Positions 5,138 to 28,799 are shown, counted from the stretch's first letter. The stretch: DNA of 28,838 nt from Pyrinomonadaceae bacterium (GCA_035257785.1 DATEWS010000451.1:1-28838); one strand, 5' to 3'. Numbers and translations: made by a program. Notes: a model not told the origin generated them from the sequence alone.

Positions 5138-6201
5138 GCGCCAACGAATCAACACTGCTGTCGATCAGAGATCTGAAAGTGCATTTCGATCTTGGTGGTG
5201 GTGGTCCACTCGACAAACTCTTCGGCACCAATCCCGTCAAGCGCGTGGTGAAGGCTGTGGACGGCGTTTCGATTGATATTTACAAAGGAGAGACTCTCGG
5301 TCTCGTCGGCGAATCTGGTTGCGGTAAGTCAACACTCGGTCGCGCGATTCTGCGACTCACCGAACCCACTGCGGGCCAGGTACTCTATAACGATCAGGAT
5401 CTCGCACTTCTAAAACCCAAACGGTTGCGCGAACAGCGCCGGCACCTCCAGATCATCTTTCAAGATCCTTATGCCTCACTCAACCCACGCATGACCGTGG
5501 GCCAGATTGTTGGTGAACCACTCGAGACGTTTCGTCTGGCGCGCGGCAGGGAAGCTGAACAACGTGTGCAGGAACTGCTCGAAACTGTCGGTTTGAGTAA
5601 ACGTTTCATCAAGCGATATCCCCATGAGTTCTCCGGCGGTCAACGGCAGCGCATCGGCATCGCACGCGCGCTCGCAGTCGATCCTGATTTCATCGTCGCC
5701 GACGAACCGATATCCGCCCTCGACGTTTCCATTCAGGCGCAGATCATGAACCTGCTCGAACGACTGCGTCGCGAAAAGAACCTCACGTATCTCTTCATCT
5801 CCCATGACCTGCGTGCGATTCGACACGTTTCAGATCGCGTAGCGGTGATGTATCTCGGCAAGCTCGTTGAGATCGCCGACGCAAAAACCATCTACGAAGA
5901 GCCACTGATGCCTTACACGAAGGCGCTCATTTCCGCGGTGCCGGTCCCCGATCCACAGGTAGAAGCTGCGAGGCAGCGTATAATGCTTGAGGGAGACGTG
6001 CCTTCTCCGATCAATCCACCGACGGGTTGTCGCTTTCACACACGTTGCCCGTACGCGATCGAGGCATGCAAGGAGGTGGTTCCTCAGCTAGTTGAGATTA
6101 AGCCGGCGCATTTTGCGGCTTGCATCAGGATCAGTCCGGCACAACCCCACATCGAAGATGTCGCGCCGGGCACCGCTCCGGGTCTGCCCCAAAACAGTTG
6201 A
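5134..6201 (+). CDS. oppF: Oligopeptide ABC transporter ATPase, OppF type (355 aa from ATG 5134)
   Basis: [40 protein letters not shown] 5134 overlaps the oppD stop (ATGA) and lies just before the usual [11 protein letters not shown] start, so it is preferred over 5026. Confidence 0.93.
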
Positions 6202-6324
6202 AATCCCCTTCTTATTAAACGTTTAGCACTAGGGTAAACTTCCTCATGTGCGGATGAAGGTAGCTCAGTTCCCGTGGCAAGCGGTTAAGTGTGTGTCTGC
6301 CACAGGTTTGTAGCCCAGATCCTG

Positions 6325-7992
6325 ATGGTTAAGAAGTCCCCCATTGCCCTGAGTCCTCAGGAACATCGTGAAGACGCGCCAACTTCCTGGCCAGAAACCC
6401 AGGACGCTTTGGCGGAGTCGTCGGGACTCGCTCTGCTTTTAGTAGATGGCCATCAGCCGCCTGCGGTGGTAGTGTCAAACAACAACTCGATTTGTCACAC
6501 CTTTCAAACCTCGCCTGAGCACGTCCAACTTTGCGACCCTTATTGCGGCGCCGCTCATTCGAAGGCGATGAAAGCGGGCGGGACGATCGAATACAAATGT
6601 CATGCGGGACTCTCGTGTTTCGCGAGACCGGTTGAGATCAGTGGCAAACGAAATCTCGCGGTGATCGGCGGGCGGGCTTTCGTAAAGAGCTCGGATTACC
6701 AACAACTGATGGAACGCTTTCGCACTGGAGATTTGGAATCGATCGCATCGGATGAAGTCTTCGCGAACATTCTGTTCGCGGAGCCGCAGCGCCTTGCCGA
6801 GCTCGAAGAACGTGTCGAGCGGGCTGCACGACGTCTGCAAGCCGCATCGTCAAACGGCTCCGGCAAGGTGGTCCAACCCGCGGCGACAAAACCAGCAAAG
6901 CCGGAACCAACGAAGGCTCAGCAGGAGTTGGAACAGGAAGTAGAGCGTTTGCGAAATGAGCTCGCGTATCGCGCCCGTTTCACCGATTCGCTGCAACACT
7001 TTCTGGAGCGAATAAGCGGCGCAGATCCGGTTAAGACGTACAATTCGATTATCAGTAATTCGAAAGAACTTCTGCAGTCAGAACGTGCTTCGCTGATGGT
7101 GTTGGACGAAACTGCAAATGAGTTGATCCTGAAAGCTGCGAGTGGACTTTCGACTGATCCGAGTTCCGTGCCGCCGGTGCGTGTCGGTGAAGGCGTGTCG
7201 GGTGAAGTTATCGATACTGGCAAGGCGTTGATGGTAACGGATCTTCGGATGGCTGGTCGCAAACCTGCGCCTGCCGAACGTCATTACAAGACAAACTCGT
7301 TCATCAGTTATCCGATCACGATCGGGGGGCGGAAAGTTGGTGTGCTCAACGTCACTGACAAATCGGGTGGCGGAACTTATGACGAAGTCGATCTGAGTTT
7401 GCTGGAGATCATTGGACCACAAGTCGCGCTTGCGCTCGAGCGCGCCGAGTGGCAGGAACGAGCGACTGAATTTCAACTGATGTCGATCACGGATGCGCTC
7501 ACAACGCTGCCGAATCGGCGGTATCTCGAGGAGCGGCTCTCGGAAGAGTTGAGTCGTTCGAAGCGCTACGATTATCCGATGAGCTTTTTGATGATCGATA
7601 TTGACGACTTCAAGGTTTACAACGACAAAAACGGGCATCAGGCAGGCGACCTGGCGTTACAGATCACGGCGCACTGTTTGAAGGGCGCGCTGCGGCAGGC
7701 TGACGTGGCGTCGCGTTATGGTGGCGAAGAGTTCTGTATATTGCTGCCACAAACGGGCATGCTCGAGGCGGGAGTGATTGCGGATCGCATCCGCGCTCGG
7801 GTGTCGACGACAACCTTTCCGCACGGGAAGTCGCAGCCTCTTGGTCGTGTAACTATAAGTGTGGGAGTGTCGACGATTATGAAAAACGTGGACACGCCGG
7901 AAAATATCATTGCCGCCGCGGACCGTGCGCTTTACCAGGCGAAAAGCATGGGAAAGGATCGGGTGGAGTTTTACGGAGAAAAAGAAAGCTAG
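6325..7992 (+). CDS. PocR-like sensor / coiled coil / GAF / GGDEF diguanylate cyclase
   Basis: N-terminal Cys-containing PocR-like segment (ICHTF...LCDPYC...YKCHAGL...IGGRAF); GAF (VGEGVSGEV, PITIGGRKVGVLNV); DALTTLPNRR, DIDDFKVYND, GHQAGD, A-site GGEEF with RxxD I-site (RQAD) five residues upstream. ATG 6325 chosen over GTG 6289; start uncertain. Confidence 0.9.
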   Translation: MVKKSPIALSPQEHREDAPTSWPETQDALAESSGLALLLVDGHQPPAVVVSNNNSICHTFQTSPEHVQLCDPYCGAAHSKAMKAGGTIEYKCHAGLSCFARPVEISGKRNLAVIGGRAFVKSSDYQQLMERFRTGDLESIASDEVFANILFAEPQRLAELEERVERAARRLQAASSNGSGKVVQPAATKPAKPEPTKAQQELEQEVERLRNELAYRARFTDSLQHFLERISGADPVKTYNSIISNSKELLQSERASLMVLDETANELILKAASGLSTDPSSVPPVRVGEGVSGEVIDTGKALMVTDLRMAGRKPAPAERHYKTNSFISYPITIGGRKVGVLNVTDKSGGGTYDEVDLSLLEIIGPQVALALERAEWQERATEFQLMSITDALTTLPNRRYLEERLSEELSRSKRYDYPMSFLMIDIDDFKVYNDKNGHQAGDLALQITAHCLKGALRQADVASRYGGEEFCILLPQTGMLEAGVIADRIRARVSTTTFPHGKSQPLGRVTISVGVSTIMKNVDTPENIIAAADRALYQAKSMGKDRVEFYGEKES

Positions 7993-8043
7993 CCGCGGAT
8001 AACACGGATTGAAAATCCGGATTTTTTCCGTGTTATCCGTGGC
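7992..8043. repeat. REP-like inverted repeat, family A copy 1
   Basis: GCCGCGGATAACACGGA / TCCGTGTTATCCGTGGC: 17-bp stem with one G-U, and an 18-nt loop containing the palindrome AAAATCCGGATTTT. Confidence 0.85.
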
Positions 8044-8053
8044 CAAAAAGTTG

Positions 8054-10336
8054 ATGAGCAGTCGCAGCCCCAGCGAAAACTTCCGCCGCATCCTCGGCCG
8101 CGTGGTCCAGCAGGACTTTGTCGGCCGTGCAGAGGAACTTGACCGCATCATGGTCCACGCGGAACCCACCAATGCCGGCCGTGGTCTGCTGCTCCTGATG
8201 GAACCTTCTGCGGGCGTCTCTGAGCTGCTGCGCCAGGCCTACGATCAACTCTTCAACCAGCACACTGACGTCATCCCTATCTACTTTGCGATCACGCCCA
8301 ACGAGACCACAGCCGTCAGCGCTGCGATCGAGTTTCTCAACACATTCGTCCAGCAATACATCGCCTTTCGCCGCAACGAGCCCGTCGTCTCAAACGCGCC
8401 CTTAACCTTGCAGGAATTACAGGAGCTCGCACTGCCTACGGATCTCGAATGGATCGAACAACTCATCGAGTCGTACAACCGCCTGCGCTTCGGTAACGAC
8501 GACAAAGCACTGGTCCGCTTCTGTCTCGGCGCGCCACAACGCGTTCCCTCCGGTCGTGGCCGGCCCTTCGTAATGCTCGACGGTTCGCAGCTCGCTGAGT
8601 ATCTAAATGGCGCCGTAGTTTTGGGAACGGAAATCCTGCGCGTGTTCGCACGTGGCAGTTTCTCTTTCGTTCTCGCCGGGCTGCGTCGCCAGATCCTCGA
8701 AGCAGCACACGACGCAAAGTGTGACTTCGAATTCCTGGACACGCTGCGTCTCGAACAACTCGACACGAACGACGCAACAAAACTCGTCGAACACGTCGCG
8801 CAGCGCCAGCAGGTAACGACGAGCGAGATCGCGCGCGATCTGCTGGTCCAACAATTCGCCGGCAGCCCGTTTTTCATCAACATCTTTTTGCAGGCAGCAC
8901 GCGAGAAACACACGTCGCTTATCTCTTATCTCGATTGCCAACGGCTCTACGTCGATGAACTCTTCGGCGGTCATATTCACCGTCACTTTGCTGATTTACT
9001 CGAAGAAATCTCGCCACGTCTCGACACGCGTCATCTTCTAATTCGATTGCTTTGGGAAGCGGCTGCGGGTGAAGAGCAGGTCTCGTCGTTTGAAGTCTGG
9101 CGCAAACGTCTTCACATGGCGGCGAGTGAACTCGAAGACGTGCTGCATCGATTGCACGTGCAGGAGTTTATTAACTGGGACGGAGCGACAGTCGAAGCCG
9201 GAGCTGGACCACAGGCGTGGAAAGACTATCTCAAGATTCGCTATCGACTTGATGTGCTCAACGAGCCGCGCGCTCTCGTTGTGGCCGACATGCTGGCCGA
9301 CTCTCTCAAGCGCGCGCCGCACACGATGGCGCGACACTACAAACAGATCGCAGACGCGGGCTTGCGCGATTTGATCTCGCACTTCAACTGCCAGCGAGTG
9401 CCTGCGGTACTCTTCGACTATGAGAGCTTCAGCAACAAGTACAGAGGCGCGGAGAGCGAGACAATCGCCTCAGGACTCGCAGCCGAAACTGAGTTCGTTA
9501 AACTGCCGCAGACCATCCATCTCGCCAGTTGCGCGGCTTTCTTCAACGATATGCGTCAGGTCTGCGAAGAGGACCACTGTCTTGTCGCGCACACGTTCGA
9601 AGAGGGAAGTTATTCCGACGCGCAACAGGTGATCTGGCTCGCAGCGGACATCAAGTCAAAGCTCGAAGTCGACGTCGAAGTCGCACGCTCCTGGTGCGAT
9701 CGACTCGAGAACATGGCCGAGCGTCTCAGCTTCAGTCGTTTTCAGATCTGGCTAATTTCAAACGAAGGTTTCTCAGACCAGGCCGGACGATTACTCGAGC
9801 GTCGCAAAGCTTTTGGCTCGAGTCGTCAGCAACTGGGCCTGCTTGCTGCGCGTCTAGGCGAGGCTGTTGTGAGCGATATCGTACAGACGAGCGAGCGCGA
9901 CGAGTTTCTGATGGTGGTTCCGATGGGCGAGGACAACGAGCTGATTGCAGCCAACACTGCCGAGCAGATCGCGAAGCGTTTGACCTTTCGTCCGGAGGCA
10001 ATCAACCAGATAAAAACGGCGATTGTCGAGGCTTGTATCAACGCCTCCGAGCACAGTTTCAGCCCCGATCGAAAAATTTATCAACGTTTTCGCGTCGAAA
10101 GTGATAGATTAGTCATCACAATTTCGAGTCGCGGCATCGTGCCCGCCAATCTAAACGGCGCGAATAGCGGATCAGAAGCGAAAGAAGCGGCGGAAGAAAG
10201 ACGCGGTTGGGGACTTAAACTCATCCGAACTCTCATGGATGAGGTCGAGTTTGAACGAGTCGACGACGGCACCAGTTTGCGCATGACCAAGTATTTGCGG
10301 TCACAGAAAAGCACAAAAGGCGCAAGCGAATCTTAA
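8054..10336 (+). CDS. Multidomain protein (760 aa): degenerate STAND/AAA-like NTPase, wHTH, possible PD-(D/E)xK-like domain, and C-terminal RsbW/SpoIIAB-type GHKL (HATPase_c_2) domain
   Basis: FVGRAEEL (AAA_16-like pre-Walker motif), degenerate Walker A EPSAGVS, Walker B FVMLDG, STAND GxP motif AGSPFFI. C-terminus has EACINASEH (N-box), RGWGLKLI (G-box) and MDEVEF...GTSLRMTK. ATG 8054 preferred because TTG 8009 lies inside a repeat. The C-terminal call is firm; the N-terminal and middle calls are less so. Confidence 0.8.
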   Translation: MSSRSPSENFRRILGRVVQQDFVGRAEELDRIMVHAEPTNAGRGLLLLMEPSAGVSELLRQAYDQLFNQHTDVIPIYFAITPNETTAVSAAIEFLNTFVQQYIAFRRNEPVVSNAPLTLQELQELALPTDLEWIEQLIESYNRLRFGNDDKALVRFCLGAPQRVPSGRGRPFVMLDGSQLAEYLNGAVVLGTEILRVFARGSFSFVLAGLRRQILEAAHDAKCDFEFLDTLRLEQLDTNDATKLVEHVAQRQQVTTSEIARDLLVQQFAGSPFFINIFLQAAREKHTSLISYLDCQRLYVDELFGGHIHRHFADLLEEISPRLDTRHLLIRLLWEAAAGEEQVSSFEVWRKRLHMAASELEDVLHRLHVQEFINWDGATVEAGAGPQAWKDYLKIRYRLDVLNEPRALVVADMLADSLKRAPHTMARHYKQIADAGLRDLISHFNCQRVPAVLFDYESFSNKYRGAESETIASGLAAETEFVKLPQTIHLASCAAFFNDMRQVCEEDHCLVAHTFEEGSYSDAQQVIWLAADIKSKLEVDVEVARSWCDRLENMAERLSFSRFQIWLISNEGFSDQAGRLLERRKAFGSSRQQLGLLAARLGEAVVSDIVQTSERDEFLMVVPMGEDNELIAANTAEQIAKRLTFRPEAINQIKTAIVEACINASEHSFSPDRKIYQRFRVESDRLVITISSRGIVPANLNGANSGSEAKEAAEERRGWGLKLIRTLMDEVEFERVDDGTSLRMTKYLRSQKSTKGASES

Positions 10337-10387
10337 CAAGGGAACCAGAAAACAAAGTTCAATTAAGCTTTTGTCCCTTTTAGTGGC
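10300..10387. repeat. Degenerate REP-like inverted repeat, family C, straddling the stop codon of the upstream CDS
   Basis: GTCACAGAAAAGCACAAAAGG (10300-10320) pairs imperfectly with GCTTTTGTCCCTTTTAGTGGC (10367-10387) and resembles GCCACAAAAAGGCAC at 14544 and 28804. Confidence 0.55.
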
Positions 10388-10416
10388 AAACATTCGAGGC
10401 AGGAGGGAGCTTTCGA

Positions 10417-10797
10417 GTGGATACACCAAGTGGCAAGCTAGTACGCTCACATTGTGTTGGCACCACTGCGGTTGTTTACGCAAGCGACTACCTTAATAAG
10501 CTGACCGGCGAGAAGATCGAGCGCGAATGTCGCCGGCAACTGAATTGTGGGTGCCGCGCGCTCGTGATCGACTTCAGCGATACCAAACTGGTCAACAGTA
10601 TAGGTGTCTCAATCCTCCTCGGCATCATCGACGTCGCCGAAAAATGCGGCGCTCGCATCGCCTTTTCAGAAGTGAATAACGAAACAGTCCAGCTATTCGA
10701 AATGCTTGGACTGACTCGCCACGTTGTCCTCGCGAAAGACGAACGAGAAGCGCTGATGAATCTTTCGCACTATGAGACTACTCCCATAGTCCACTGA
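10417..10797 (+). CDS. STAS-domain anti-sigma factor antagonist (RsbV/SpoIIAA-like)
   Basis: 126 aa; LVIDFSDTKLVNSIGVSILL matches the STAS phospho-Ser loop (D-L/F-S...D/N-S-x-G); VQLFEMLGL. GTG start with GGAGG upstream. Confidence 0.88.
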   Translation: MDTPSGKLVRSHCVGTTAVVYASDYLNKLTGEKIERECRRQLNCGCRALVIDFSDTKLVNSIGVSILLGIIDVAEKCGARIAFSEVNNETVQLFEMLGLTRHVVLAKDEREALMNLSHYETTPIVH

Positions 10798-10801
10798 TTC
10801 C

Positions 10802-12064
10802 ATGGAGCCTTCGACTCAGAAACTGATCCACACATTCGGAGCGCTTGCCGACCTGGGCCAGGAGATTGCCGGCACCGGCGATTTCAATGAGATGGTCCGT
10901 ACGTCGATGCACATGCTGCTCGGGACGCTCGCATTGCGACGCGGTGCCGTGGTGGAGTGTACTTCCGGTGGTCCACTTCGTTGCGCCGCGCTCTGGGGTC
11001 TCAGCGACCAGATGTTTGACGGGTTTGAGATCGACGAGCTCGAAAAGCAGTCATTTCTCCAGGGCGATCCAAGTGAACTGCTGGTCAGCAGCACAGAGGT
11101 CACGAACACCTTCATTAATCGACATCGTGACAAACTCACAGCCGAGGGCATCGAACTCGTCTTGCCGATGATCGTGCGTGGTGAAGTGACAGGCATGGTC
11201 CTGCTCGGCGGCAAAGCCAGTGGTGAAGAGTTTTCAGAAGATGACTTCGAAACGATTCGCGCGATGGTCCGTCACATCGGTGTCGGGATTCACACGCATC
11301 GTTTACTCGAACAGGTGGCGCAGCGAGCGGAAGAGAATCGAAGACTGTATGAAGAGTTGCGCGCGATCTATCGCGACACAGTAAGGGCGTTTGCGGCGGC
11401 GATCGATATCAAAGACAAGTACACGCAGGGTCACTCGGAACGTGTGGGCAGGTACAGCGAGATCATCGCGCGTGAGATGGGTTGGAGTGAAGAAGAAGTC
11501 GAGGGAATTCAGATTGCTGGATACCTGCACGACATCGGCAAGTTGATCGTCGATCGCGACATCATCAACGCGCCTTACAACATCGATGCGAAGAATTCGA
11601 GTGAACTGAATCGACATCCTGCGGCGGGATACGAGATCCTGTCGCCGATCAATCATCCTTACGCGGACATACCGTTGATGGCTAAGTACCATCACGAGCG
11701 TCTCGATGGGCGTGGTTATCCGGATGGATTGACGGACGAGCAGATCCCGATCGGCGCAAAGATCGTTTCGCTAGCGGATTCATTTGACGCAATGACGACG
11801 GATCGTCCTTACCGGCGGCGGCGATCGTTTGAAGACGTTGTACGCGATCTGCGGGAGAACAGTGGCAAGCAGTTCGATGGCAAGGTTGTGGCTGCGTTTG
11901 CGAGAGCGATGCTGAAAGAGGTCAAGGGCGAAACCAAAGATCGACGCATCACGAAGATGCTCGGCAAAAGCTACCTCGAAGGTGAACAAGTCCCGACTTT
12001 ACTCACGGATCTCATCTCCGACCTGGAAGAAGTCTCGCGCAGCGGCGCAGCGGCACAACGCTAA
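10802..12064 (+). CDS. GAF + HD-GYP cyclic-dinucleotide phosphodiesterase
   Basis: GAF-like N-terminus (LVLPMIVRGEVTGMVLLGGK), coiled-coil linker, then DKYTQGHSERV, LHDIGK, HHERLDGRGYPDGL, ADSFDAMTTDRPYR. Confidence 0.92.
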   Translation: MEPSTQKLIHTFGALADLGQEIAGTGDFNEMVRTSMHMLLGTLALRRGAVVECTSGGPLRCAALWGLSDQMFDGFEIDELEKQSFLQGDPSELLVSSTEVTNTFINRHRDKLTAEGIELVLPMIVRGEVTGMVLLGGKASGEEFSEDDFETIRAMVRHIGVGIHTHRLLEQVAQRAEENRRLYEELRAIYRDTVRAFAAAIDIKDKYTQGHSERVGRYSEIIAREMGWSEEEVEGIQIAGYLHDIGKLIVDRDIINAPYNIDAKNSSELNRHPAAGYEILSPINHPYADIPLMAKYHHERLDGRGYPDGLTDEQIPIGAKIVSLADSFDAMTTDRPYRRRRSFEDVVRDLRENSGKQFDGKVVAAFARAMLKEVKGETKDRRITKMLGKSYLEGEQVPTLLTDLISDLEEVSRSGAAAQR

Positions 12065-12092
12065 AACCTTGCGTCGCTGCGCCGCTGCGTGA
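12035..12092. terminator. REP-like inverted repeat, family B, between convergent genes; likely bidirectional terminator or processing hairpin
   Basis: CGCAGCGGCGCAGCG (12038-12052) / CGCTGCGCCGCTGCG (12075-12089): perfect 15 bp, extendable to 18 with one G-U. Followed by an A-run. Terminator function is inferred. Confidence 0.65.
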
Positions 12093-12096
12093 AAAA

Positions 12097-12957
12097 TTAC
12101 TTAGGCTGGATTCGCAGAACAAAATTGCAGATCGCAATCTTCTGATCGGGCGCGACTTCGGTCGGTTCTTCGCGGATTAACTCTTTCCCATTCACGACCG
12201 TCGGATTTCGGCCCTTCGCCACGAGCCAGTATCGCCCTTCATTATCACGCGACAGCACCGCATGAACGCGACTCACTTCCGGATCGCCTTTGATCGGAAG
12301 GTCCACCGAGATACTCCGCGAACCACGACCAATCGTTATTTCGTTTTTGGCGATGGGAACCACTGCTTCGCGCACGCCGCTGCGCCACACCTCAACCGAG
12401 TAAAGCGCCTGCGCCTTCGGACGTACGACAGTTTGCTCACTCTCGCTGATTACATCCGAAGCACGCTCTACCACCGTGTCGTTCGGATTAAACGCGGGCG
12501 CCGTCTGCCCCGGATTTACACGCGGCGTCACCATCGTGTGACCACTCTCCGTCTCATCCCAAACTGCCTGCACGCGAAACTCACCCTTATTCAACGTTCC
12601 ATCAACACGCAGTTCAACTGCAAATGACTTGACTGCCAGTTGCGTCTGTCCGCTCAGCTCGCGCGCGCGTTCGGAAAGCACGTGAAAGAGTCCCTGCTCG
12701 AGTCCACGACGCTTATCGCCCTGCCAATCCTTATCGTCATCGGCGCTGAGGTAAACGATGTATTCGCGGGGAATGTAGGTTGGACCACCTGGCGGCGTGA
12801 ACATCTCGCGCTGCATCGCAGCCTCGACTTCGCGCGCAATCTTCACGAGAAACTCTTCCCACACGCGGCGGGGCTTGGCATGTTCGTCGGCGGCTTCGAG
12901 TAGATCCTCGCCTGTTTCACCGTCTATCCATTTTCTGATCGATTCAAGCAGGCCCAA
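12097..12957 (-). CDS. FhaA-like protein: DUF3662-like N-terminal domain + C-terminal FHA domain
   Basis: N-terminal ...TYIPREYIVYLS...GEFRVQA pattern; FHA motifs IGRG, VSRVHA, GRNPTVVNG. TTG start with AAGGAG 7 nt upstream. Confidence 0.85.
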   Translation of the reverse strand: MGLLESIRKWIDGETGEDLLEAADEHAKPRRVWEEFLVKIAREVEAAMQREMFTPPGGPTYIPREYIVYLSADDDKDWQGDKRRGLEQGLFHVLSERARELSGQTQLAVKSFAVELRVDGTLNKGEFRVQAVWDETESGHTMVTPRVNPGQTAPAFNPNDTVVERASDVISESEQTVVRPKAQALYSVEVWRSGVREAVVPIAKNEITIGRGSRSISVDLPIKGDPEVSRVHAVLSRDNEGRYWLVAKGRNPTVVNGKELIREEPTEVAPDQKIAICNFVLRIQPK

Positions 12958-12985
12958 ACTTTCGCTCCTTCTGCCGCACGCAAAA

Positions 12986-14533
12986 TCAGTCGAACTTTAC
13001 GTATATCTTTCGAATCCAGCCACGGTCCGAAGAGTATGGATCGGTCTTCGGCCGCGCATGTTCCAACACCTGCACTTCGTACCAATTGGGATCGGCATTC
13101 AAGATCTTAACCTTTGATCCTGACTCAGCGAGTCCGATGGGAGCGTTATTCGCGCTGCTCGCGATCGGTCGCAGATTTACATCGGTCGTCGTCACACCCT
13201 GCCGCCCAATCGGCTCAACATTCTGTATGGTGGTCAGCGGATTCCAATGCGTCGTCACGTACTTGTGCGTCGCCAATAGCATTCCGGAAAACGCGAGGAT
13301 CAAACCCAACGCAACTAAAGCGCGCCGCTTGCGGCTGGCAGGAAATACAGACGCTGTTACTGGTGGACCGATCGTCTCGAATCTACGTTCCGGTTCAACT
13401 CTCGCATCCTGACGCGTTTGCAGTTCCCGCTGACGCCGCGTTTCCATTCCGACACTGATCGGCACAACGATCCGCGGACGTCTTTGTGAATCAAGCTCGG
13501 TCAGCACCGGACGCGGCACATCGAAGTGCGGTCGCGGCGGCGCCGCTTCCGTGAACTCCTCTTCAGGCTCGACTGACAGATCCGCGCTCGGCTTCCGACG
13601 CATCTGCTGCAACTCAGGCGTCACCATCTGTAACGGCCGCGTCGGCGGCAGGCTCGCATCGGCAATGTCGTCCCAGAACTCTTCAACAGTTTGATAACGA
13701 GCTTCAGGCCGATTTTGAGTCGCCTTTTCAAGCACGCGCAGCACTGGCCTGGACCAAAACTCCTCGCTTATGTGCGACGGCAACTCGCTGATTGCGTGTT
13801 GCGCGAAGCGACGCGGCGATTCACCCGCAAGCAACGTGTACGTCGTCTTCGCAAGCGAATAGATGTCGGCTGCCGGAGTCAGGTGAACGTGCTGCAATCG
13901 CAATCCGGTGGTGTCGAGTTGCCCCGTTTGCATTAAGGGGTTGTGCTCGGGCGCTGAATAGATGTTTGTTCCGACTCTCGTAATCGCACCGTCAGTGTTG
14001 TCGAGACGAGCGACGCCGAAGTCCGCGATCTTCACGACCTCCTGATCGGCGGTGAGCAAAAGGTTTTGCGGTTTGATGTCGCGATGGATGACGCCGCACT
14101 TGTGCGCATGTGCGAGTCCGGAACAGACCTGCTCGAGATAAAACAGCGCTCGCTTGAGCGATAACGGTCGCGTCTTCGTCAACGCAAAGAGATCGCCGCC
14201 GGGCAAATATTCGAGCACGATGTAATGAAACGTTGTGCCCGCGAGATCGATGGCGGTTCCGTGACCAAGGCGATTGATGACGTTCGGATGGCGCACCCGA
14301 TCGAGCGCCACCGCTTCGTTCTGAAAATTCGTGACCAGAGTTCGCTCGAGCTCGGCATCCGGCGCGTCCTGGAGATAGAGATTCAGCGCCTTGATGACGA
14401 TGGTGCGCGCTGCGCCTTCAGGTGCGGCGTTGTCGTTGGCGACGTAGATCTCAGCATAACTGCCGCGTCCGAGGCATTCGAGGATGTCATACCGCCCATC
14501 GAGTCTGCTCTGTTGAAGTTTGAGTTCCGACAT
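12986..14533 (-). CDS. Hanks-type Ser/Thr protein kinase with a TM helix and a C-terminal SH3b-like domain
   Basis: GRGSYA, VIK, HRDIKPQN, DFG, GTNIYSAPE, DIYSL; TM ALVALGLILAFSGMLLA; tail TTTDVNLR...GSKVKILNADPNWYEVQV...GWI resembles bacterial SH3. Confidence 0.92.
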   Translation of the reverse strand: MSELKLQQSRLDGRYDILECLGRGSYAEIYVANDNAAPEGAARTIVIKALNLYLQDAPDAELERTLVTNFQNEAVALDRVRHPNVINRLGHGTAIDLAGTTFHYIVLEYLPGGDLFALTKTRPLSLKRALFYLEQVCSGLAHAHKCGVIHRDIKPQNLLLTADQEVVKIADFGVARLDNTDGAITRVGTNIYSAPEHNPLMQTGQLDTTGLRLQHVHLTPAADIYSLAKTTYTLLAGESPRRFAQHAISELPSHISEEFWSRPVLRVLEKATQNRPEARYQTVEEFWDDIADASLPPTRPLQMVTPELQQMRRKPSADLSVEPEEEFTEAAPPRPHFDVPRPVLTELDSQRRPRIVVPISVGMETRRQRELQTRQDARVEPERRFETIGPPVTASVFPASRKRRALVALGLILAFSGMLLATHKYVTTHWNPLTTIQNVEPIGRQGVTTTDVNLRPIASSANNAPIGLAESGSKVKILNADPNWYEVQVLEHARPKTDPYSSDRGWIRKIYVKFD

Positions 14534-14542
14534 TTAATTTTT

Positions 14543-14624
14543 AGCCACAAAAAGGCACACAAGGCACCTAACAGAACCAAACCGTTCTTTTACGCCTACG
14601 TGCCTTTGGTGCCTTTTTGTGGCT
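14543..14624. repeat. REP-like inverted repeat, family C
   Basis: AGCCACAAAAAGGCAC (14543-14558) / GTGCCTTTTTGTGGCT (14609-14624): perfect 16 bp, plus inner AAGGCAC/GTGCCTT. Confidence 0.85.
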
Positions 14625-14668
14625 CATTTCGCACCTTAGATGCCTCACAAGAGATCATGGTTCTGTGC

Positions 14669-16153
14669 CTAAGGGGCGTTTGAGTTGGAGGGAGGTTTGG
14701 TCAGTTCTTCGTAATGATTCAGCACTTTCCAACGGTCACGCTGAGTGCGAACGCTAACAGCCGCGAGGCCGAGAACTGCTTCTCTTTTGATCGTGGCGTT
14801 TGCGGGCGAGGGATTTGCATCCGCTTTACTGATCGCGGCGTCAAAAGCCTTGCTCGCCTCGTCAGTGTTTCCGGTCAGAAGATTTGCGCGACCGTAAAGA
14901 TACAAAAAATCCGCATTCGGCGAATCGAGTGGACTCTGAACGTTTGACGCCAGCAACTCCTTGCTGATGTCGTTCGCGAGCCACGCGCGTGGATCCTGAT
15001 CGACTTGCCTTCGCGCACGTTCGAACTTCACAAAAGGCTCCTCCGGAACCGGCGTGCTCGTTGGCGCGGAAACCGCCGGTGTTTGCGCCCTGGTTGCCAG
15101 GAAGGGAATTCGTTCCTTGTAACGCGCGCCTGCATAAAAAGCTCCGCCGATTAACAACAGCACGACCAGAACACCTAACAAGCGCCCCACGCCACTGCCT
15201 CCTTTCGCCGCCACAGGCGCCGCAACGTTGAGTGGTTCTGTCACAACTGCGGCTGCCGTCGCAGGCGCCGGAAACGCGATGCGCGAAGCCGGAACAAAAG
15301 TGTTCTCCGGTTCAGAACCGTTGCTCTGGACCGCGTAAACCGGCTCCGTTTCCGGCGTAATCGTCGGTTCCAGATCTGCCAAACGCTCGCCGGCTTTCAA
15401 ATGTTCGCCAACACGCACAACGATCACAGTCAAATTGTCTTCCGCGCCACGCTCGTAGCAACGTCGTTTCAACTCACTGCAAAGATCGTCGAGACTGTTG
15501 CTGATAACCATTAGCTGCCGCAGCTCGTTGTCGGAAACGTGACGAGTGATGCCGTCAGTACAGAGCAGAAACTCCGTGCCGTCTTCGACTTCCATCGTCT
15601 TCATGTCAACTTCGACAGCCTGCTCAGCGCCGAGCGCACGACTGATGACGTTCTTACTGGGATGATTCGCGGCTTGCTCGGGCGTCATTCGTCCGGCCCG
15701 CACTTCTTCTTCGACGATCGAGTGGTCCTCAGTTTCGCGGTGCAGTTGCCCGTCCGGAGTGAGACGGTAGAGACGTGAATCACCGACGTGACCGAACGTC
15801 GCGACGTTGCCTTTGAGATGGAGCGCGACGATCGTAGTCGCCATCATCGAAAACTTCGCGTGCTCCTGGGCCATCTGGTGAATGGAAGCATTCGCGCGTT
15901 GAATGGCGAGCTCCATCAAGTCTTCAACGTCGGCGCCGTCAACCTGGTGTCGAAACGCTTCGTCGAGAACTTCGATCGCTGTTTGCGACGCTACCTCGCC
16001 CGCCTCAGCGCCACCGACGCCATCCGCTACAGCGAAGATGGAACGACCCTGATCGTGGAGGAGTGCGTCCTCGTTCAGTGGGCGCCGTTCGTTCAGGCCG
16101 CGGTCCGTCAGGGCTGCGGAGTGGACCTGAAAGGTTTTAGTGTCTTCGCTCAT
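14669..16153 (-). CDS. PP2C/PPM-family Ser/Thr phosphatase (PstP/Stp1-like) with a TM helix and a helical, TPR-like C-terminal domain
   Basis: TDRG..R..NED, VADGVGG, GHVGDSRLY, LLCTDG, GAEDNLT; TM LLGVLVVLLLIGGAFYA; C-terminal FLYLYGRANLLTGNTDEASKAFDAA is TPR-like. ATGA overlap with the rodA stop. Confidence 0.92.
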   Translation of the reverse strand: MSEDTKTFQVHSAALTDRGLNERRPLNEDALLHDQGRSIFAVADGVGGAEAGEVASQTAIEVLDEAFRHQVDGADVEDLMELAIQRANASIHQMAQEHAKFSMMATTIVALHLKGNVATFGHVGDSRLYRLTPDGQLHRETEDHSIVEEEVRAGRMTPEQAANHPSKNVISRALGAEQAVEVDMKTMEVEDGTEFLLCTDGITRHVSDNELRQLMVISNSLDDLCSELKRRCYERGAEDNLTVIVVRVGEHLKAGERLADLEPTITPETEPVYAVQSNGSEPENTFVPASRIAFPAPATAAAVVTEPLNVAAPVAAKGGSGVGRLLGVLVVLLLIGGAFYAGARYKERIPFLATRAQTPAVSAPTSTPVPEEPFVKFERARRQVDQDPRAWLANDISKELLASNVQSPLDSPNADFLYLYGRANLLTGNTDEASKAFDAAISKADANPSPANATIKREAVLGLAAVSVRTQRDRWKVLNHYEELTKPPSNSNAP

Positions 16154-17841
16154 TCAACTGCCTCCAGCTTAAGGGGAGAAGAACTCTTAGCTACCGGCCG
16201 ATCCGCTATGACACGATCGCGGGCATTTCTACTTGAAAACGCCATCAGCATCCCGAGCATCGCAAAACTAGTAATCAAACTGAAACCACCGTGACTCACA
16301 AACGGCAACGTGATTCCAGTCATCGGCAAAGCACGCAAGATACCGCCAATATTCACGAGGGCTTGAAAACCGACAAACGCTGTTAGACCTGCCGCGCATA
16401 ACTTCGTAAACATATCACGCGCCTCCAGCGAAGTGCGAACTCCTGCGACCACAAAAATAATGATCGCGAGGATGATCACAGCCCCACCAGCGAGGCCGGT
16501 TTCTTCAGCAATTGCGGCGTAAATGTAGTCGGAGTCGGCAATCGGGATCACTTCCGGAAAACCCAGACCAAAGCCGCGTCCGGTTGATTTGCCGGAGGCG
16601 ATTCCAAACTGCGCCTGCGCGGGTTGAAAGGCGAGTTGGTCGAACCAGATATCAACGTTAACAGTCTTCTGCATCGCCGGGCTCTGCTCGGCTAGTTCTT
16701 TTAGTTTCGGATCCTTCTTCAGTGCTTCATCGTAGTCTTTCTTCCACCACGAGACTTCCGGCGACGGCGGATCGAAACCATCGAGCCAGAGATGGAAGCG
16801 TTGTTGAATGCGAGAGGGAAGTGCAGCGCTGATCGGGCGTGCGATCGTCGGCAGCAGCGGCACTTTTTCCTGTATGTCGCGCGGTAACGCGCCAACGACG
16901 AGGATGCTGATCACGAGCAGCACCGAACCGACGAAGAGAAGCAGTTGTGGCCAGCGACGAACAGCGACGAGATAAAGCGTCGTGTAAGCGCCGCTGAAGA
17001 TCAACATCTGGCCGAAGTCTTTGAGTGCGAAGAAGGGAACAAATGGCAATATTGCCATCACGAGTAGCGGCACGATGTCGCGCGCGCGTGGAATGCCCCA
17101 GTAAGTCTCAGCGAGATCTTTGTAACGAGCGGTGAGAATGCCTGCGAAGCCGACGAGGAACGGGATCTTCGAAGGTTCCCACGGCGTCATGTTACCGAGT
17201 GCTTTACCAGCGCTGGATGTGACGACTGCGATCGCGAGTGGAGCAAGCGTGAACAATACGATGATGAAACTATTTCGCTGTAGCCATAAGAGAAAACCGT
17301 CACGCGCACACAACGAATACGCGATCGCGAAAGCGAAGAACGAGAAGACTGGAATCCATGTGTAACTCGAAGTGATGGCGTTCCAGAGTGAGTAGTTCGA
17401 CTCTTTTTTCGGGAGTTGACTGATATCGATCGGCTGGGCCGGAGTTGGAGGCAGACCCATCATCTGTTTCTTGATGGGATCGTAGTTCTCCATGATGTAG
17501 CGCGTACGCAGCGCCTGCATCTTCTCTTCGCGCGCAGCGGCTTTGTTACGCGCGTTGTATTCCGGATCGCTATAGAGGCGATACTGGATCAGCATGCCGA
17601 AGGCGAACAGGAGAATCGCGGTGGTGAAGAGAACCCAGTTGCCGGCAAATCTCTTGCTGCGCGAGAGCCAGAGCACCAGGAAGATCAGTGGAACGAACAT
17701 CGCGAGGTCGCGCACCGCGCCGATGATCGATGTTTCGTATCCTCGCAACAAGCCGGAACGATGCACCGCGAAATAACCGGTGATCTCGAGGCCGAGAATG
17801 ATCAGGATGATTAATAGATGTGACGATGCCCGATTCCGCAT
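16150..17841 (-). CDS. rodA: SEDS-family peptidoglycan glycosyltransferase (RodA/FtsW), 563 aa, with loop insertions
   Basis: KDFG, GFGLGFP, DSDYIYAAIAEE (catalytic Asp region), NIGG...LPMTGITLPFVSHGGFS; about 10 TMs; adjacent to a class B PBP. The rodA symbol rests on synteny. Confidence 0.88.
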   Translation of the reverse strand: MRNRASSHLLIILIILGLEITGYFAVHRSGLLRGYETSIIGAVRDLAMFVPLIFLVLWLSRSKRFAGNWVLFTTAILLFAFGMLIQYRLYSDPEYNARNKAAAREEKMQALRTRYIMENYDPIKKQMMGLPPTPAQPIDISQLPKKESNYSLWNAITSSYTWIPVFSFFAFAIAYSLCARDGFLLWLQRNSFIIVLFTLAPLAIAVVTSSAGKALGNMTPWEPSKIPFLVGFAGILTARYKDLAETYWGIPRARDIVPLLVMAILPFVPFFALKDFGQMLIFSGAYTTLYLVAVRRWPQLLLFVGSVLLVISILVVGALPRDIQEKVPLLPTIARPISAALPSRIQQRFHLWLDGFDPPSPEVSWWKKDYDEALKKDPKLKELAEQSPAMQKTVNVDIWFDQLAFQPAQAQFGIASGKSTGRGFGLGFPEVIPIADSDYIYAAIAEETGLAGGAVIILAIIIFVVAGVRTSLEARDMFTKLCAAGLTAFVGFQALVNIGGILRALPMTGITLPFVSHGGFSLITSFAMLGMLMAFSSRNARDRVIADRPVAKSSSPLKLEAVE

Positions 17842-17848
17842 ATGTTTT

Positions 17849-17902
17849 AACCACAGATGACACAGATAGAAAATCGGATTTTTTTCTGTGTCATCTGTGG
17901 TT
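17849..17902. repeat. REP-like inverted repeat, family A copy 2
   Basis: AACCACAGATGACACAGA / TCTGTGTCATCTGTGGTT: perfect 18 bp. Its 18-nt loop TAGAAAATCGGATTTTTT is nearly identical to the loop of copy 1. Confidence 0.88.
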
Positions 17903-17904
17903 TC

Positions 17905-19740
17905 TTATCTGAAATACCCGAGGTCCCTCGCTTTCAACACGAGCGCTGCGGCGATGGGCGCAGCGGATCTCGATCCGTAACCACCACCTTCAACAATCAC
18001 CGCCATCGCAAGCTGCGGCTTCTCGAGCGGCGCGATGCACAGAAACCAACCGTCAATCCGCGGATGGTCATTGTCCATGATCACTTCATCGTACTCGCGG
18101 ATGATGTTGCCCTTATTATCGCGCTCGACCTTGTGTTGCGTCTTGGGTTCTCCAGTCTTGGGATCGTAAACAGGCACGACCTTCTGCGCCGTTCCCGTTT
18201 TGCCACCGGTATTGATTCCCGCGGCCTTCACTGGTCCAAACACACCGCGCGCCGTTCCACTTGGACCACCTGTGACCAACCCCATGATGGATCGCAAACG
18301 AGCCGCAGTCTGCGGCGTCATCACCTGGTTGAACGGCTGTGGCGCCACGTTGTACTCGATCCGGGGCTTCATCAACTTGCCTTCCATATTCCCAATCGCC
18401 GACGCCGCGAGCGCCATTTGAAACGGCGTCATCTGTCCCGCATAACCCTGACCGTAACCCATCAACGCCAGGTCGTATCTCGTCACCTGCTTCCCCGTAA
18501 CGATCGTCGCCTCCCTCGGTGCGAGCGCGCGTTTAACTGCATCAGTGCTCGCATCCCAGATCTCCGGCAGCTTGCGACCACGCAACGCTTCCGAAGGCGT
18601 GTCATAAGCACCGATGCCCAACAACTGCGCCGCGCGTTTCAGACGTTCCGGTCCGAGCTTCACGCCCATCTGCGCGAAGTACTGGTTACAAGAAACCTCA
18701 TACGCCTGATCGATCTTGATCCGGCCGTGTACTTCGCCCGGTCCACCATCGTCGAAAATCACGGGCGCTCCGGGCGCGGCATAGTAACCACCGCCACTAC
18801 AGGTAAACTCCGTGTCCTGCTCGCCCGCCAGAAACGCGGCAGTCATAGTCACTGTTTTAAAGGTGGAGCCGGGAATGTAATACGCACCGAGCGCACGACT
18901 GACGAGCGGTTTGTCGCGTTCATTCGCTTCGAGACGAATCCACGTTGCTTCGTCGTCAACTTCCGCCAGACTGTAAGAAGGCTCGCTGTAAAGCGCGAGC
19001 ACGTCTCCGGTTTGCGGATTAAGAACTACGACCGCGCCGTGCTTTCCCTTCAACTGGTCCACCGCGGCCTGTTGCAGCGAACGATCGATCGTGAGGCGCA
19101 CGTCCTGGTTGCCTTTGAACTCGACTTCCTTGCCTTTAACGATCTCAAGCGCTTCGGGCAGAGCGCCACTCTGAACTCCGAACAACGCACGCTCGAGTCC
19201 CGGATCGCCGCGATCCGATCCGAATATGTGGGCCAACGCCTTATCCATCGGATACTCACGCTGGATGTTGCCGCTCGAATCGCGTTTGTAATAAGCGAGC
19301 GGTTGGTCCACACGACCGCTGCGATCATAGATCCAGCCGCGCAGCGTAGATTGCGAAAGCCGGCGCACGCGCAGGTCCTTGTAACTCAAGTCCTGAAACT
19401 TTTCATTTTGTTCTACAGCGTATTGCGCCCAGTAGATATGAAAACCAAAGAGGCCGAACGCAAGCAGGATAAAAAACCAGCGCAGAGCGCGTAATCCGCG
19501 ATTGGTTGAAGTTGACCCGAGTCTTTTTCGGACTTCTTTGGGAAGGTCTTCAGGAATAGCAGGACCGATCTGGCGACGACTGCGAATCAGTCCGAGCAGT
19601 AAGAGCAAAATGACGAAGCCGAAACCTCCGACGTAGATCAGCGTGAACAGCGCCGGGGTTCGTTCGGGCACATGCGGAGTCGGAAGGGGAGTAGGTGCAG
19701 AAGTTTGGAAGAGAAGTAGAAGTAATATGAATCCGTTCAT
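17905..19740 (-). CDS. pbpA: Class B penicillin-binding protein (PbpA-like transpeptidase)
   Basis: LRGWIYDRSG pedestal motif, SxxK (PGSTFK), SxN (SCN), KTG (GKTGTAQ). The symbol is assigned from similarity of architecture and synteny to the actinobacterial rodA-pbpA pair. Confidence 0.88.
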   Translation of the reverse strand: MNGFILLLLLFQTSAPTPLPTPHVPERTPALFTLIYVGGFGFVILLLLLGLIRSRRQIGPAIPEDLPKEVRKRLGSTSTNRGLRALRWFFILLAFGLFGFHIYWAQYAVEQNEKFQDLSYKDLRVRRLSQSTLRGWIYDRSGRVDQPLAYYKRDSSGNIQREYPMDKALAHIFGSDRGDPGLERALFGVQSGALPEALEIVKGKEVEFKGNQDVRLTIDRSLQQAAVDQLKGKHGAVVVLNPQTGDVLALYSEPSYSLAEVDDEATWIRLEANERDKPLVSRALGAYYIPGSTFKTVTMTAAFLAGEQDTEFTCSGGGYYAAPGAPVIFDDGGPGEVHGRIKIDQAYEVSCNQYFAQMGVKLGPERLKRAAQLLGIGAYDTPSEALRGRKLPEIWDASTDAVKRALAPREATIVTGKQVTRYDLALMGYGQGYAGQMTPFQMALAASAIGNMEGKLMKPRIEYNVAPQPFNQVMTPQTAARLRSIMGLVTGGPSGTARGVFGPVKAAGINTGGKTGTAQKVVPVYDPKTGEPKTQHKVERDNKGNIIREYDEVIMDNDHPRIDGWFLCIAPLEKPQLAMAVIVEGGGYGSRSAAPIAAALVLKARDLGYFR

Positions 19741-19749
19741 CCAGTTTCG

Positions 19750-20598
19750 CTACTCACTTTTACGCAATCGTACTTCTACGTCTCCAAAACCAACCACATC
19801 GCCGTCTTCGATCAATCGTGATTCACCATAAGAGATGCGACGCCCGTTGAGGTAAGTGCCGTTGGTCGAACCAGTGTCGGCAACGAGAAGCGTGCCTTCG
19901 GCAGTCATCAAGAGCGCGCCATGAATCTTCGACACGCTTGCGTCGTTCAAGGTGAGTTCGTTATCAGCGGCGCGGCCGACGTTGAGTCGTTTGCCTCCGG
20001 GCTTGAAGATCAGCGGAATTTCGCGCGTGCCGGCTGGCATAGTAACGCGTGCGATCACCTGGATGTCAGGCATCGGCGGCGCCGCGCCCGGAATCGGCAA
20101 ACCCAATTTAGCGGCGCGCATCTCTTCGTCCTGACGCCTGAGATCCTCTTCGAATTCTCCAAAAGTCGGATCGACGGAGATTCCGGTGGTGAAGATGTCG
20201 ACTTCGGCGTCGACCGTAACTGGTCCAAGCGTGCGGTAACGATGATCGTTAATGTGATCGATCGCGGCGGCGAGCACTTCGTTTTTCAGATCGTGAAGAA
20301 TTTCGGGCGGTGCTTCGGAATGCGTGCCCCACTCGACTTTGAGGACGAGGTGGTGCGGCGCGATCCTGCCTTTCCTGCCTTCGTCTCGAACGCGCTCATC
20401 GATCAACTTTTTCATGCGCTCGATGAGTTTCGAAGTGGTGAGTCCGCTTCGCGGTTCGACTGTGCGACCGAGCCCGCGGTCGACGACGCTGCCCATGCCT
20501 TCGAGCACGCGACGCAGCAGGCGTTCGGGTAGCGCTTCCTCGCGCTTTTTCCTTGCGTCTTCGTTTACCTTACCAGCCGAGTCTTCTGCGTCAGTCAT
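19750..20598 (-). CDS. FhaA-like protein: DUF3662-like domain + FHA domain
   Basis: IAPHHLVLKV...AIDHINDHRYRTLGPVTV (DUF3662-like); FHA motifs VGRAADN, SVSKIHG, DTGSTNGTYLNG. Confidence 0.88.
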   Translation of the reverse strand: MTDAEDSAGKVNEDARKKREEALPERLLRRVLEGMGSVVDRGLGRTVEPRSGLTTSKLIERMKKLIDERVRDEGRKGRIAPHHLVLKVEWGTHSEAPPEILHDLKNEVLAAAIDHINDHRYRTLGPVTVDAEVDIFTTGISVDPTFGEFEEDLRRQDEEMRAAKLGLPIPGAAPPMPDIQVIARVTMPAGTREIPLIFKPGGKRLNVGRAADNELTLNDASVSKIHGALLMTAEGTLLVADTGSTNGTYLNGRRISYGESRLIEDGDVVGFGDVEVRLRKSE

Positions 20599-28172: not shown

Positions 28173-28799
28173 ATGACAAATAGTGAAGTCTTCCCAATTT
28201 TGCACGGTGGCCTGGCGGCCACAACGAAATCTGAACCAGCGCCAAATTCGGATTTGGCGTTGGCTATCGCCGCCGGCAAAGGCGACATGGGCGCGTTTGA
28301 GAAGATTTATGAGCGTCACAACCGGCGGGTGTATTCACTGTGTCTGCGGATGACGCAGAATGCGGCTGAGGCTGAAGATCTCGCCCAGGAGGCGTTCATA
28401 CAGTTATTTCGCAAGATCGGCAGCTTCCGTGGCGATTCTGCATTCACGACATGGCTGCACCGGTTGACGGTCAACCAGTGTCTGATGCACTTCCGGAAAC
28501 GCAGTGTGAAGATGGAGAAAACCACTGAGGAAGGTGAGACGCCGGTACAGATCGTCAGCGGCACTGAAAACCCCAACTCGATGCCGATCATGGATCGCAT
28601 CGCGCTGGATAATGCGTTAACACAACTACCGCCGGGATATCGAACCGTCTTTGTGTTACACGACGTTGAAGGTCACGAACACGAAGAGATCGCGAAGATG
28701 CTCGGCGTTGCTGTCGGCACTTCCAAGTCGCAGTTGCACAAAGCGCGCATGAAGCTGCGCAAGATTCTTAAAGCGCGCAACGAACCAAGCAAGAATTAA
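28173..28799 (+). CDS. ECF-family sigma-70 RNA polymerase sigma factor (208 aa)
   Basis: Region 2: AFEKIYERH...AEDLAQEAF...[11 protein letters not shown]. Region 4: [16 protein letters not shown]...EEIAKMLG...[11 protein letters not shown]. No region 3 and no C-terminal extension. Confidence 0.93.

Follow-up and report, generated by a model that had tools for sequence, protein, structure and literature searches.

How is the turnover of cyclic diguanylate (c-di-GMP) controlled where genes for a diguanylate cyclase, an RsbW-like protein, a STAS protein and an HD-GYP phosphodiesterase stand side by side? Such a locus is found at positions 6325-12064 of a stretch of 28,838 nucleotides (nt) from a Pyrinomonadaceae bacterium (GCA_035257785.1 DATEWS010000451.1:1-28838), called the window here at its full length. 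Pyrinomonadaceae are abundant, little-studied soil bacteria. Partner switching is known as a control of sigma factors; in three systems that have been studied, its targets are diguanylate cyclases. The four genes are one conserved cassette, whose domains, motif states, synteny and two-pair structure were all observed directly. On balance we favour the reading that this cassette is a sigma-free partner switch that sets c-di-GMP turnover, with the STAS protein shuttling between the RsbW-like protein (hereafter the hub) and the HD-GYP protein.

Organization of the cassette

The cassette consists of the following features:

6325..7992, + strand: PocR-GAF-GGDEF diguanylate cyclase, start ATG at 6325
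7993..8043, + strand: palindromic sequence of 51 nt with a 15-bp outer stem and an inner hairpin, occupying the cyclase/hub gap
8054..10336, + strand: hub, a STAND-like ATPase/nuclease-fold/RsbW-like fusion of 760 amino acids (aa), start ATG at 8054
10417..10797, + strand: single-domain STAS protein of the anti-sigma-antagonist type, start GTG at 10417
10802..12064, + strand: GAF-like HD-GYP phosphodiesterase, start ATG at 10802

All open reading frames (ORFs) lie at these coordinates in one orientation, with gaps of 61 nt (cyclase/hub), 80 nt (hub/STAS) and 4 nt (STAS/HD-GYP), as a preliminary description of the sequence had given them. The same description had reported neither a sigma factor nor a SpoIIE/RsbU phosphatase in the cluster; none is encoded within the four genes. 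The database entry of the hub is 760 aa long, which places its start at M16 of the long ORF.

Conservation of gene order

Full-length relatives of the hub are found in 22 of 24 genomes of the window's genus and in three genera of another Blastocatellia family, the latter at 32-35% identity. The order cyclase-hub-STAS-HD-GYP is kept at all 14 genome loci, including those of the second family, where the proteins are 32-45% identical and the flanks are different. Partial metagenome contigs concur with this order. An exhaustive, profile-free search for the hub family gave 529 cluster representatives at 50% identity, 186 of them at E <= 1e-30. Since nearly all of these relatives are 700-830 aa long, they share one architecture. 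Three contigs (L035, L037 and L118) with members at only 24-27% identity also have all four genes in this order, next to unrelated neighbours. A cluster look-up of distant members yielded a single taxon name, Blastocatellia.

When 98 loci were scored with hidden Markov models built for the cassette, 85 had the complete order, 10 were cut by contig ends and three (L096, L103 and L109) carried insertions. The arrangement is far beyond chance, because 85 of 98 loci keep it and the other 13 are explained by contig ends or insertions. Conserved synteny, which the preliminary description proposed to look for across Acidobacteriota, is found: the cassette is conserved independently of its flanks and is not a chance neighbourhood.

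In a sample of 401 genomes of the phylum, the N-terminal region of the hub is present in all 27 Pyrinomonadaceae and in both genomes of the second family, in one copy each, and is absent from the other families (about 370 genomes). A scan of the phylum with a basal hub whose Walker A motif is intact added no further family, save one weak match. With one copy in every sampled genome of the family, the cassette is probably central to how Pyrinomonadaceae control c-di-GMP. It probably also exists outside Acidobacteriota. The basis for this is indicative and comes from the FtsY sequence of contig L035, whose nearest named relatives, 53-59% identical, are in Thermodesulfobacteriota, 'Deltaproteobacteria' and Nitrospirota metagenome-assembled genomes and include none from Acidobacteriota. 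On the same contig a PilZ-domain gene (L035:11019-11411), a candidate local c-di-GMP receptor, lies directly downstream of the 24%-identity cassette copy in convergent orientation.

Two gene pairs

Among the 98 loci, the median gaps are -4 nt for cyclase/hub, 56 nt for hub/STAS and 14 nt for STAS/HD-GYP; these values use longest-ORF starts, and the negative ones may exaggerate overlap. The insertions in L096, L103 and L109 consist of unrelated DNA and are at the hub/STAS junction only, and STAS and HD-GYP are still adjacent there; the inserts of L096 and L103 were annotated. The insert of L096 is 4.7 kb long and has genes for a methyltransferase, an epimerase and a GT2 on the opposite strand (L096:10357-14774). 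That of L103, 6.7 kb long, is an RHS toxin cassette with a gene for a 1587-aa RHS-repeat toxin and small downstream ORFs (L103:10459-15222). In these three related genomes the hub/STAS junction has acquired foreign DNA, and it seems to be an insertion hotspot. The short outer gaps and the confinement of insertions to the middle junction argue for two co-translated pairs, cyclase with hub and STAS with HD-GYP, which can be transcribed separately. The single module of the preliminary description holds in that the four genes are conserved together, but they behave as two pairs rather than as one block.

In the window itself the first pair is interrupted by the palindrome at 7993-8043, whose RNA fold has an energy of -33.5 kcal/mol (z -6.8). 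As most relatives have no gap at the cyclase/hub junction, it is probably an insertion resembling a repetitive extragenic palindromic (REP) element. The hairpin could set the ratio of cyclase to hub product. A scan of 5900-12400 found no sigma-70-type promoter and fewer terminator-like sites than expected from shuffled sequence, which is uninformative on co-transcription.

The STAS protein and the two c-di-GMP enzymes

The domains of the two enzymes are as follows (nt positions are approximate):

~6394-6726, + strand: PocR-like sensor domain of the cyclase (Pfam PocR, 2.6e-14), with five conserved Cys and one His
~7030-7440, + strand: GAF domain of the cyclase, preceded by a coiled coil (Pfam GAF_2, 1.6e-18)
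~7486-7959, + strand: GGDEF domain of the cyclase (Pfam GGDEF, 1.6e-47; NCBIfam GGDEF, 3.6e-51)
~10802-11311, + strand: GAF-like N-terminal domain of the HD-GYP protein (Pfam GAF, 5.9e-5, a weak match of 24 bits against a cut-off of 22.4)
~11390-11887, + strand: HD-GYP catalytic domain (Pfam HD_5, 1.5e-33)

The cyclase has the active-site motif GGEEF and, five residues upstream, an I-site RxxD (RQAD). In an alignment of 42 sequences, E469 and the I-site residue R457 are invariant, and G466, G467, E468, F470 and D460 reach 90% conservation or more. In the HD-GYP protein the metal ligands of the HD...HHE..D..GYP signature and the GYP motif itself are all invariant among 32 sequences (H211, H243, D244, H272, H297, H298, E299, D302, G305, Y306, P307, D326 and D329). 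Its nearest solved structure is PmGH (4mcw, 9e-37). The presumed substrate is c-di-GMP, or possibly another cyclic dinucleotide. As far as conserved residues tell, both enzymes retain their catalytic sites, which agrees with the intact GGEEF, I-site and HD-GYP noted at the outset. The Cys/His set of the PocR domain (C57, C70, C74, C92, H93 and C98, counted from the ATG at 6325; nt 6493-6618) is invariant or at least 90% conserved among 42 homologues and suggests a metal, Fe-S or redox-sensing input site.

The STAS gene matches Pfam STAS (PF01740) at 2.9e-9, and its nearest solved relatives by sequence are SpoIIAA and RsbV. It encodes a single-domain antagonist with the Ser loop that the preliminary description had seen. 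The loop N60-S61-x-G63-x-S65 is invariant in 34 of 34 sequences, the most distant included.

Predicted docking of STAS on the HD-GYP protein

A complex of the STAS and HD-GYP proteins was predicted, together with three controls. With each protein given its own, unpaired alignment, the complex has an ipSAE of 0.66 (runs 0.65, 0.66 and 0.81), and the best of the three controls has 0.00. In the calibration of the tool, 58 of 80 solved complexes and 2 of 110 mismatched pairs attain this ipSAE mark; these counts are rough here because own alignments were used. At least 94% of the contacts agree between runs, and the partners have a predicted local distance difference test score (pLDDT) of at least 80. 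No solved STAS/HD-GYP complex was found among the sequence relatives of either protein, so that the prediction is less likely to reproduce a known structure.

The predicted interface joins residues 3-47, 65-66 and 138-141 of the HD-GYP protein, in the GAF-like domain, to residues 28-32, 60-72 and 89-102 of STAS. Its residues are conserved above expectation on both sides: 13 of 23 against 5.3 expected in STAS (p 1e-4), and 9 of 28 against 4.6 expected at the HD-GYP N-terminus (p 0.02). When STAS-paired relatives of this N-terminal domain were sought outside the cassette, the matches listed were all close relatives. The model supports docking of STAS on the GAF-like domain through the invariant Ser loop, and the predicted interface provides a concrete residue set for testing. 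The preliminary description had proposed that the STAS/GHKL pair controls both enzymes directly; the predicted complex gives this in-silico support for the HD-GYP protein only.

In SpoIIAA/SpoIIAB and RsbV/RsbW, the face of the STAS protein around the Ser loop contacts the kinase. Because the predicted STAS face is this same kinase-contact face, binding of STAS to the hub and to the HD-GYP protein should be mutually exclusive.

Architecture of the hub

The AlphaFold2 model of the hub, built with 86 family members, has a pLDDT of 91 and a predicted template modelling score of 0.86. Three parts are distinguished (nt positions are approximate):

~8111-9340, + strand: Arch_ATPase/STAND-like AAA+ domain with winged helix, N-terminus (Foldseek)
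~9347-9889, + strand: PD-(D/E)xK nuclease-fold domain of the Mrr/DUF234-like class, centre (VIA fold search)
~9896-10336, + strand: RsbW-like GHKL domain, C-terminus (Foldseek, Pfam)

For residues ~20-400, the top Foldseek matches are 2qen (6e-8) and 2fna (5e-7), followed by Cdc6/ORC and Apaf-1/CED-4/NLR structures. Sequence comparison of the N-terminus with solved structures gave no match up to E 1, and Pfam finds AAA_16 below threshold (E 0.038); distant relatives of the hub match PF01637 or AAA_16. By its modelled fold, the N-terminus is a STAND/ORC-like AAA+ domain with a winged helix. The large, unusual N-terminus had been called STAND-like from the start, and the fold matches are to this STAND/AAA+ class.

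The P-loop is dead in this genome. The Walker A position reads EPSAGVSE and has no Lys, while P51, G54, E57, a Walker-B-like Asp and the FxGR..EL lead-in remain conserved. The Walker A Lys is kept in 10 of 86 family representatives, all among the most divergent, and lost in 76; hubs of the second Blastocatellia family (L021-L023) keep GK[ST]. On this comparison the dead P-loop is a derived state, because the basal relatives and the second family keep GK[ST]. The term pseudo-NTPase of the preliminary description is thus right for the window, where the Lys is absent, but not for the basal relatives. Across the family, an NTPase has decayed in steps into a scaffold: basal members still have the Walker A Lys, and the others have lost it.

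Modelled by itself, the central domain (ORF residues 447-627) has a pLDDT of 95. In the VIA search its first match is 1y88 (Z 9.9, root-mean-square deviation (rmsd) 2.5, 109 residues aligned), followed by 13 nuclease-fold rows at Z 6.6-7.9, which include R.BspD6I, NucS, Cdn1, Can2, AspBHI, FokI and MspJI. Foldseek against PDB gave nothing at E <= 0.001. A match to an AFDB entry with a 'Mrr domain' was rejected as evidence for this domain, since the aligned part (162-680) may exclude the Mrr domain of that entry. The nuclease motif has the family consensus E-I-[DE]-S-K (acidic residue in 69 of 82, K in 77 of 82), and no conserved Asp was found upstream of the (D/E)xK motif in the family. Nuclease activity of this hub is unlikely because the window reads D-I-K-S-K against this consensus.

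The C-terminal domain matches HATPase_c_2 (PF13581, 5.1e-19). RsbW and SpoIIAB are its nearest named models in NCBIfam, and it superposes on RsbW of the RsbV/RsbW complex 6m36 (Foldseek TMt 0.94, rmsd 2.2).

The GHKL pocket

In GHKL ATPases such as Hsp90, GyrB and MutL, the Asp of the G1 box hydrogen-bonds N6 of adenine, and its change to Asn abolishes ATP binding. This Asp is missing throughout the hub family. With the G1 position fixed by alignment to RsbW (ADEGDSF) and SpoIIAB (RDEGVG), it is Asn in 69, Ser in 17 and Asp in none of 86 representatives, and it is Ser in the window. The box reads [NS]xGxx instead of DxGxG, so that the second Gly is also gone. Both of the genome's other RsbW-like genes keep DxGxG (HDQGPGF and EDEGEGF). 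On the other hand, little or no variation is seen at E659 and N663 of the hub N-box and in the G2 box RGWGL. The pocket would then be either inactive or retuned, with its phosphate and Mg ligands retained. An RsbW kinase acting on a phospho-Ser loop, as the preliminary description had it, is therefore upheld in the RsbW fold and in the presence of the Ser loop but doubtful as to the kinase reaction itself.

Genome context

The assembly is 5.2 Mb in size and 89% complete. Public proteins almost identical to those of the window bear the name Pyrinomonadaceae (Acidobacteriota, Blastocatellia). The cassette has an oppABCDF-type ABC transporter upstream. Its other neighbours, and two further genes of the window, are as follows:

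12097-20598, - strand: FhaA/Hanks kinase (with SH3b)/PP2C/RodA-FtsW/class B penicillin-binding protein/FhaB cluster of actinobacterial style, convergent on the cassette
14669-16153, - strand: PP2C gene of this FHA/kinase cluster, 2.6 kb downstream of the cassette
20768-25168, - strand: 1466-aa protein with VIT, von Willebrand A and outer-membrane beta-barrel domains (OMP_b-brl_4, 8.5e-114)
28173-28799: extracytoplasmic function (ECF) sigma gene

The FHA/kinase cluster is syntenic in the window's genus, but the cassette of the second family and of the distant contigs does not have it as a neighbour. Among 14 loci checked, wherever a PP2C gene lies near the cassette in the window's genus, it is a member of this convergent cluster. 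The PP2C at 14669-16153 was rejected as the phosphatase of the cassette, as it belongs to that cluster and does not accompany the cassette elsewhere. Outside Pyrinomonadaceae (second-family loci and distant contigs), neither a PP2C nor a sigma gene is conserved next to the cassette.

The assembly has three RsbW-like regions and five STAS regions. Its two region-3 sigma genes are RpoD-length (frames of 526 and 620 aa), and no sigma candidate of SigB/SigF size was found in the 89%-complete genome. The module had also been called self-contained, which is not borne out: at least five strong SpoIIE-type phosphatase regions lie on other contigs. The c-di-GMP set of the assembly comprises about 11 GGDEF, 6 HD-GYP, 4 EAL and 8 PilZ regions. 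Given these other regions, the cassette is one node in a c-di-GMP network of ordinary size. Two contigs of the same genome, C637 (6352-7995) and C527 (3650-5287), encode single HD-GYP + GGDEF proteins (frames of 669 and 685 aa), which are fused counterparts of the make/break pairing in the cassette.

Proposed mechanism and alternatives

In the switch that we favour, STAS would use the face around the Ser61 loop for one of two partners. One is the RsbW-like end of the hub, whose binding to STAS is expected by homology. The second partner is the N-terminal GAF-like domain of the HD-GYP protein, where docking of STAS would alter phosphodiesterase activity, with either sign. The hub would be made with the cyclase and may associate with it. 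Its STAND-like AAA+/nuclease-fold body would act as a conformational input choosing whether STAS is held or released. Signals would enter through the Cys-rich PocR domain, the GAF domain of the cyclase, the I-site and the hub. Synthesis and breakdown of c-di-GMP would be under reciprocal control and would not be on simultaneously. As the P-loop of the hub is dead and its GHKL domain is without the adenine-binding Asp, sequestration or a non-canonical nucleotide is the probable basis of the switch, rather than ATP-dependent Ser phosphorylation of the textbook kind.

Several points weigh against this proposal. In the known systems the STAS partner protein acts on a cyclase and not on a phosphodiesterase. 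The complex score expresses the confidence of a model, and its alignments are unpaired; the negative gaps, measured from longest-ORF starts, may be exaggerated. The invariant N-box and G2 box would suit a functional nucleotide pocket better than an inactive one, and the invariant Ser61 is what would be expected of a phospho-acceptor. The SpoIIE-type phosphatases on other contigs could serve the cassette from a distance.

These points lead to the alternative of a classical phospho-switch, in which the GHKL domain of the hub is a kinase for Ser61, a remote SpoIIE or PP2C phosphatase reverses the reaction, and the phospho-state picks the enzyme, with the cyclase as main target. The invariance of Ser61 (34/34), the conservation of E659, N663 and RGWGL, the five or more SpoIIE-type genes and the published precedents, all acting on cyclases, agree with it. 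We nevertheless consider it rather unlikely, as the G1 Asp is Asn or Ser in 86 of 86 representatives and the second Gly is lost while both paralogues keep DxGxG, loci outside Pyrinomonadaceae have no phosphatase gene linked to the cassette (in the window's genus, the PP2C nearby is part of the FHA/kinase cluster), and STAS is paired genetically with the HD-GYP gene and not with the cyclase. The switch that we favour could work with or without phosphorylation of Ser61: against such a role speaks the absence of the G1 Asp and of any linked phosphatase, and for it the invariant Ser with intact N-box and G2 box.

It is also conceivable, though we would give it little weight, that the family-wide swap of the G1 Asp, beside an N-box and G2 box that bind Mg and phosphate and stay invariant, reflects altered base specificity rather than lost function, and that the GHKL domain uses or reads a guanine nucleotide (GTP, pGpG or c-di-GMP), making the cassette a c-di-GMP homeostat. 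If so, the hub would sense the c-di-GMP pool of its neighbours and pass STAS to the phosphodiesterase accordingly, and this would be a nucleotide-gated, phosphatase-free partner switch.

A true anti-sigma function, in which the RsbW-like domain binds a remote sigma factor and the two enzymes only feed or read c-di-GMP, is very improbable. The domain is indeed nearest to RsbW and SpoIIAB by sequence and fold, and the window has an ECF sigma gene at 28173-28799. However, no sigma gene adjoins the cassette at loci with different flanks, the only region-3 sigma genes detected are the two with frames of 526-620 aa, with no candidate of SigB/SigF size, and ECF sigma factors are not known as targets of RsbW-type anti-sigma factors.

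That the genes are neighbours by descent only, each enzyme being run by its own sensor domains, can be nearly dismissed: most loci come from one family, so that shared ancestry accounts for much of the synteny, and the genome has about 10 other GGDEF, 5 other HD-GYP and 4 EAL regions, but the order survives at 24-27% identity with unrelated flanks and in contigs with a housekeeping gene that does not look acidobacterial, insertions never split either pair, each sampled genome of the family has one copy of the cassette, and the STAS/HD-GYP model passes its controls.

Comparison with known systems

The preliminary description did not recognise the four-gene arrangement as described before, and likewise we found no paper describing it. 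Nor did the literature yield a paper on a STAS/HD-GYP pair, on a STAND-RsbW fusion or on c-di-GMP signalling in Pyrinomonadaceae. STAS-type proteins are reported to bind c-di-GMP enzymes in the pairs SiaC-SiaD, HsbA-HsbD and BgrV-BgrR (PMC8457831).

The cassette is similar to SiaABCD of P. aeruginosa in that a c-di-GMP enzyme is the direct target of a small STAS-like protein (SiaC, and by prediction the STAS protein here), the partner controlling this binding is of the kinase type, no sigma factor is involved and the genes form one cluster (PMC8457831). In SiaABCD, however, SiaC is a DUF1987 protein, its target is the stalk of the cyclase, and a PP2C phosphatase, SiaA, works with an active kinase. 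The cassette instead has a STAS protein, no linked PP2C and a GHKL domain without the G1 Asp; its hub adds about 600 aa of STAND-like and nuclease-fold domains, and the HD-GYP protein belongs to the unit and is the predicted target of STAS. Against the SiaD model, the cyclase of the cassette scores 162 bits (cut-off 290), and only its GGDEF part is matched.

HptB-HsbR-HsbA-HsbD of P. aeruginosa and BgrSTUWV-BgrR of Sinorhizobium meliloti share with the cassette a true STAS protein, which modulates a diguanylate cyclase in those systems. Unlike the cassette, they include a PP2C phosphatase and an RsbW-type kinase that is active, with a receiver domain in HsbR as well, and they lack both a phosphodiesterase partner and a STAND/nuclease-fold hub.

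RsbW-RsbV and SpoIIAB-SpoIIAA of Bacillus (6m36, 1th8) are the nearest kin, in sequence and fold, of the C-terminus of the hub and of STAS, and the N-box and G2 box are kept. Unlike them, the cassette has no apparent sigma target, its G1 box is [NS]xGxx in place of DxGxG, its STAS protein has N-S where D-S is canonical, and its GHKL domain is fused to an N-terminal body of 620 aa.

The best fold matches of that N-terminus are PAB2304 (2qen) and SSO1545 (2fna), together with PF01637 ATPase_2 and the STAND/ORC-Cdc6/Apaf-1 proteins. The hub differs from the archaeal-type PF01637 ATPases in the loss of the Walker A Lys in most members and in the fused GHKL domain. PmGH of Persephonella marina (4mcw) has the same layout of a GAF-like and an HD-GYP domain. 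It has no known protein partner, whereas the N-terminal domain of the cassette protein is the predicted dock for STAS. Compared with all these systems, the cassette would extend partner switching to a c-di-GMP phosphodiesterase as target and to input from a STAND-type scaffold, possibly with no ATP-dependent phosphorylation.

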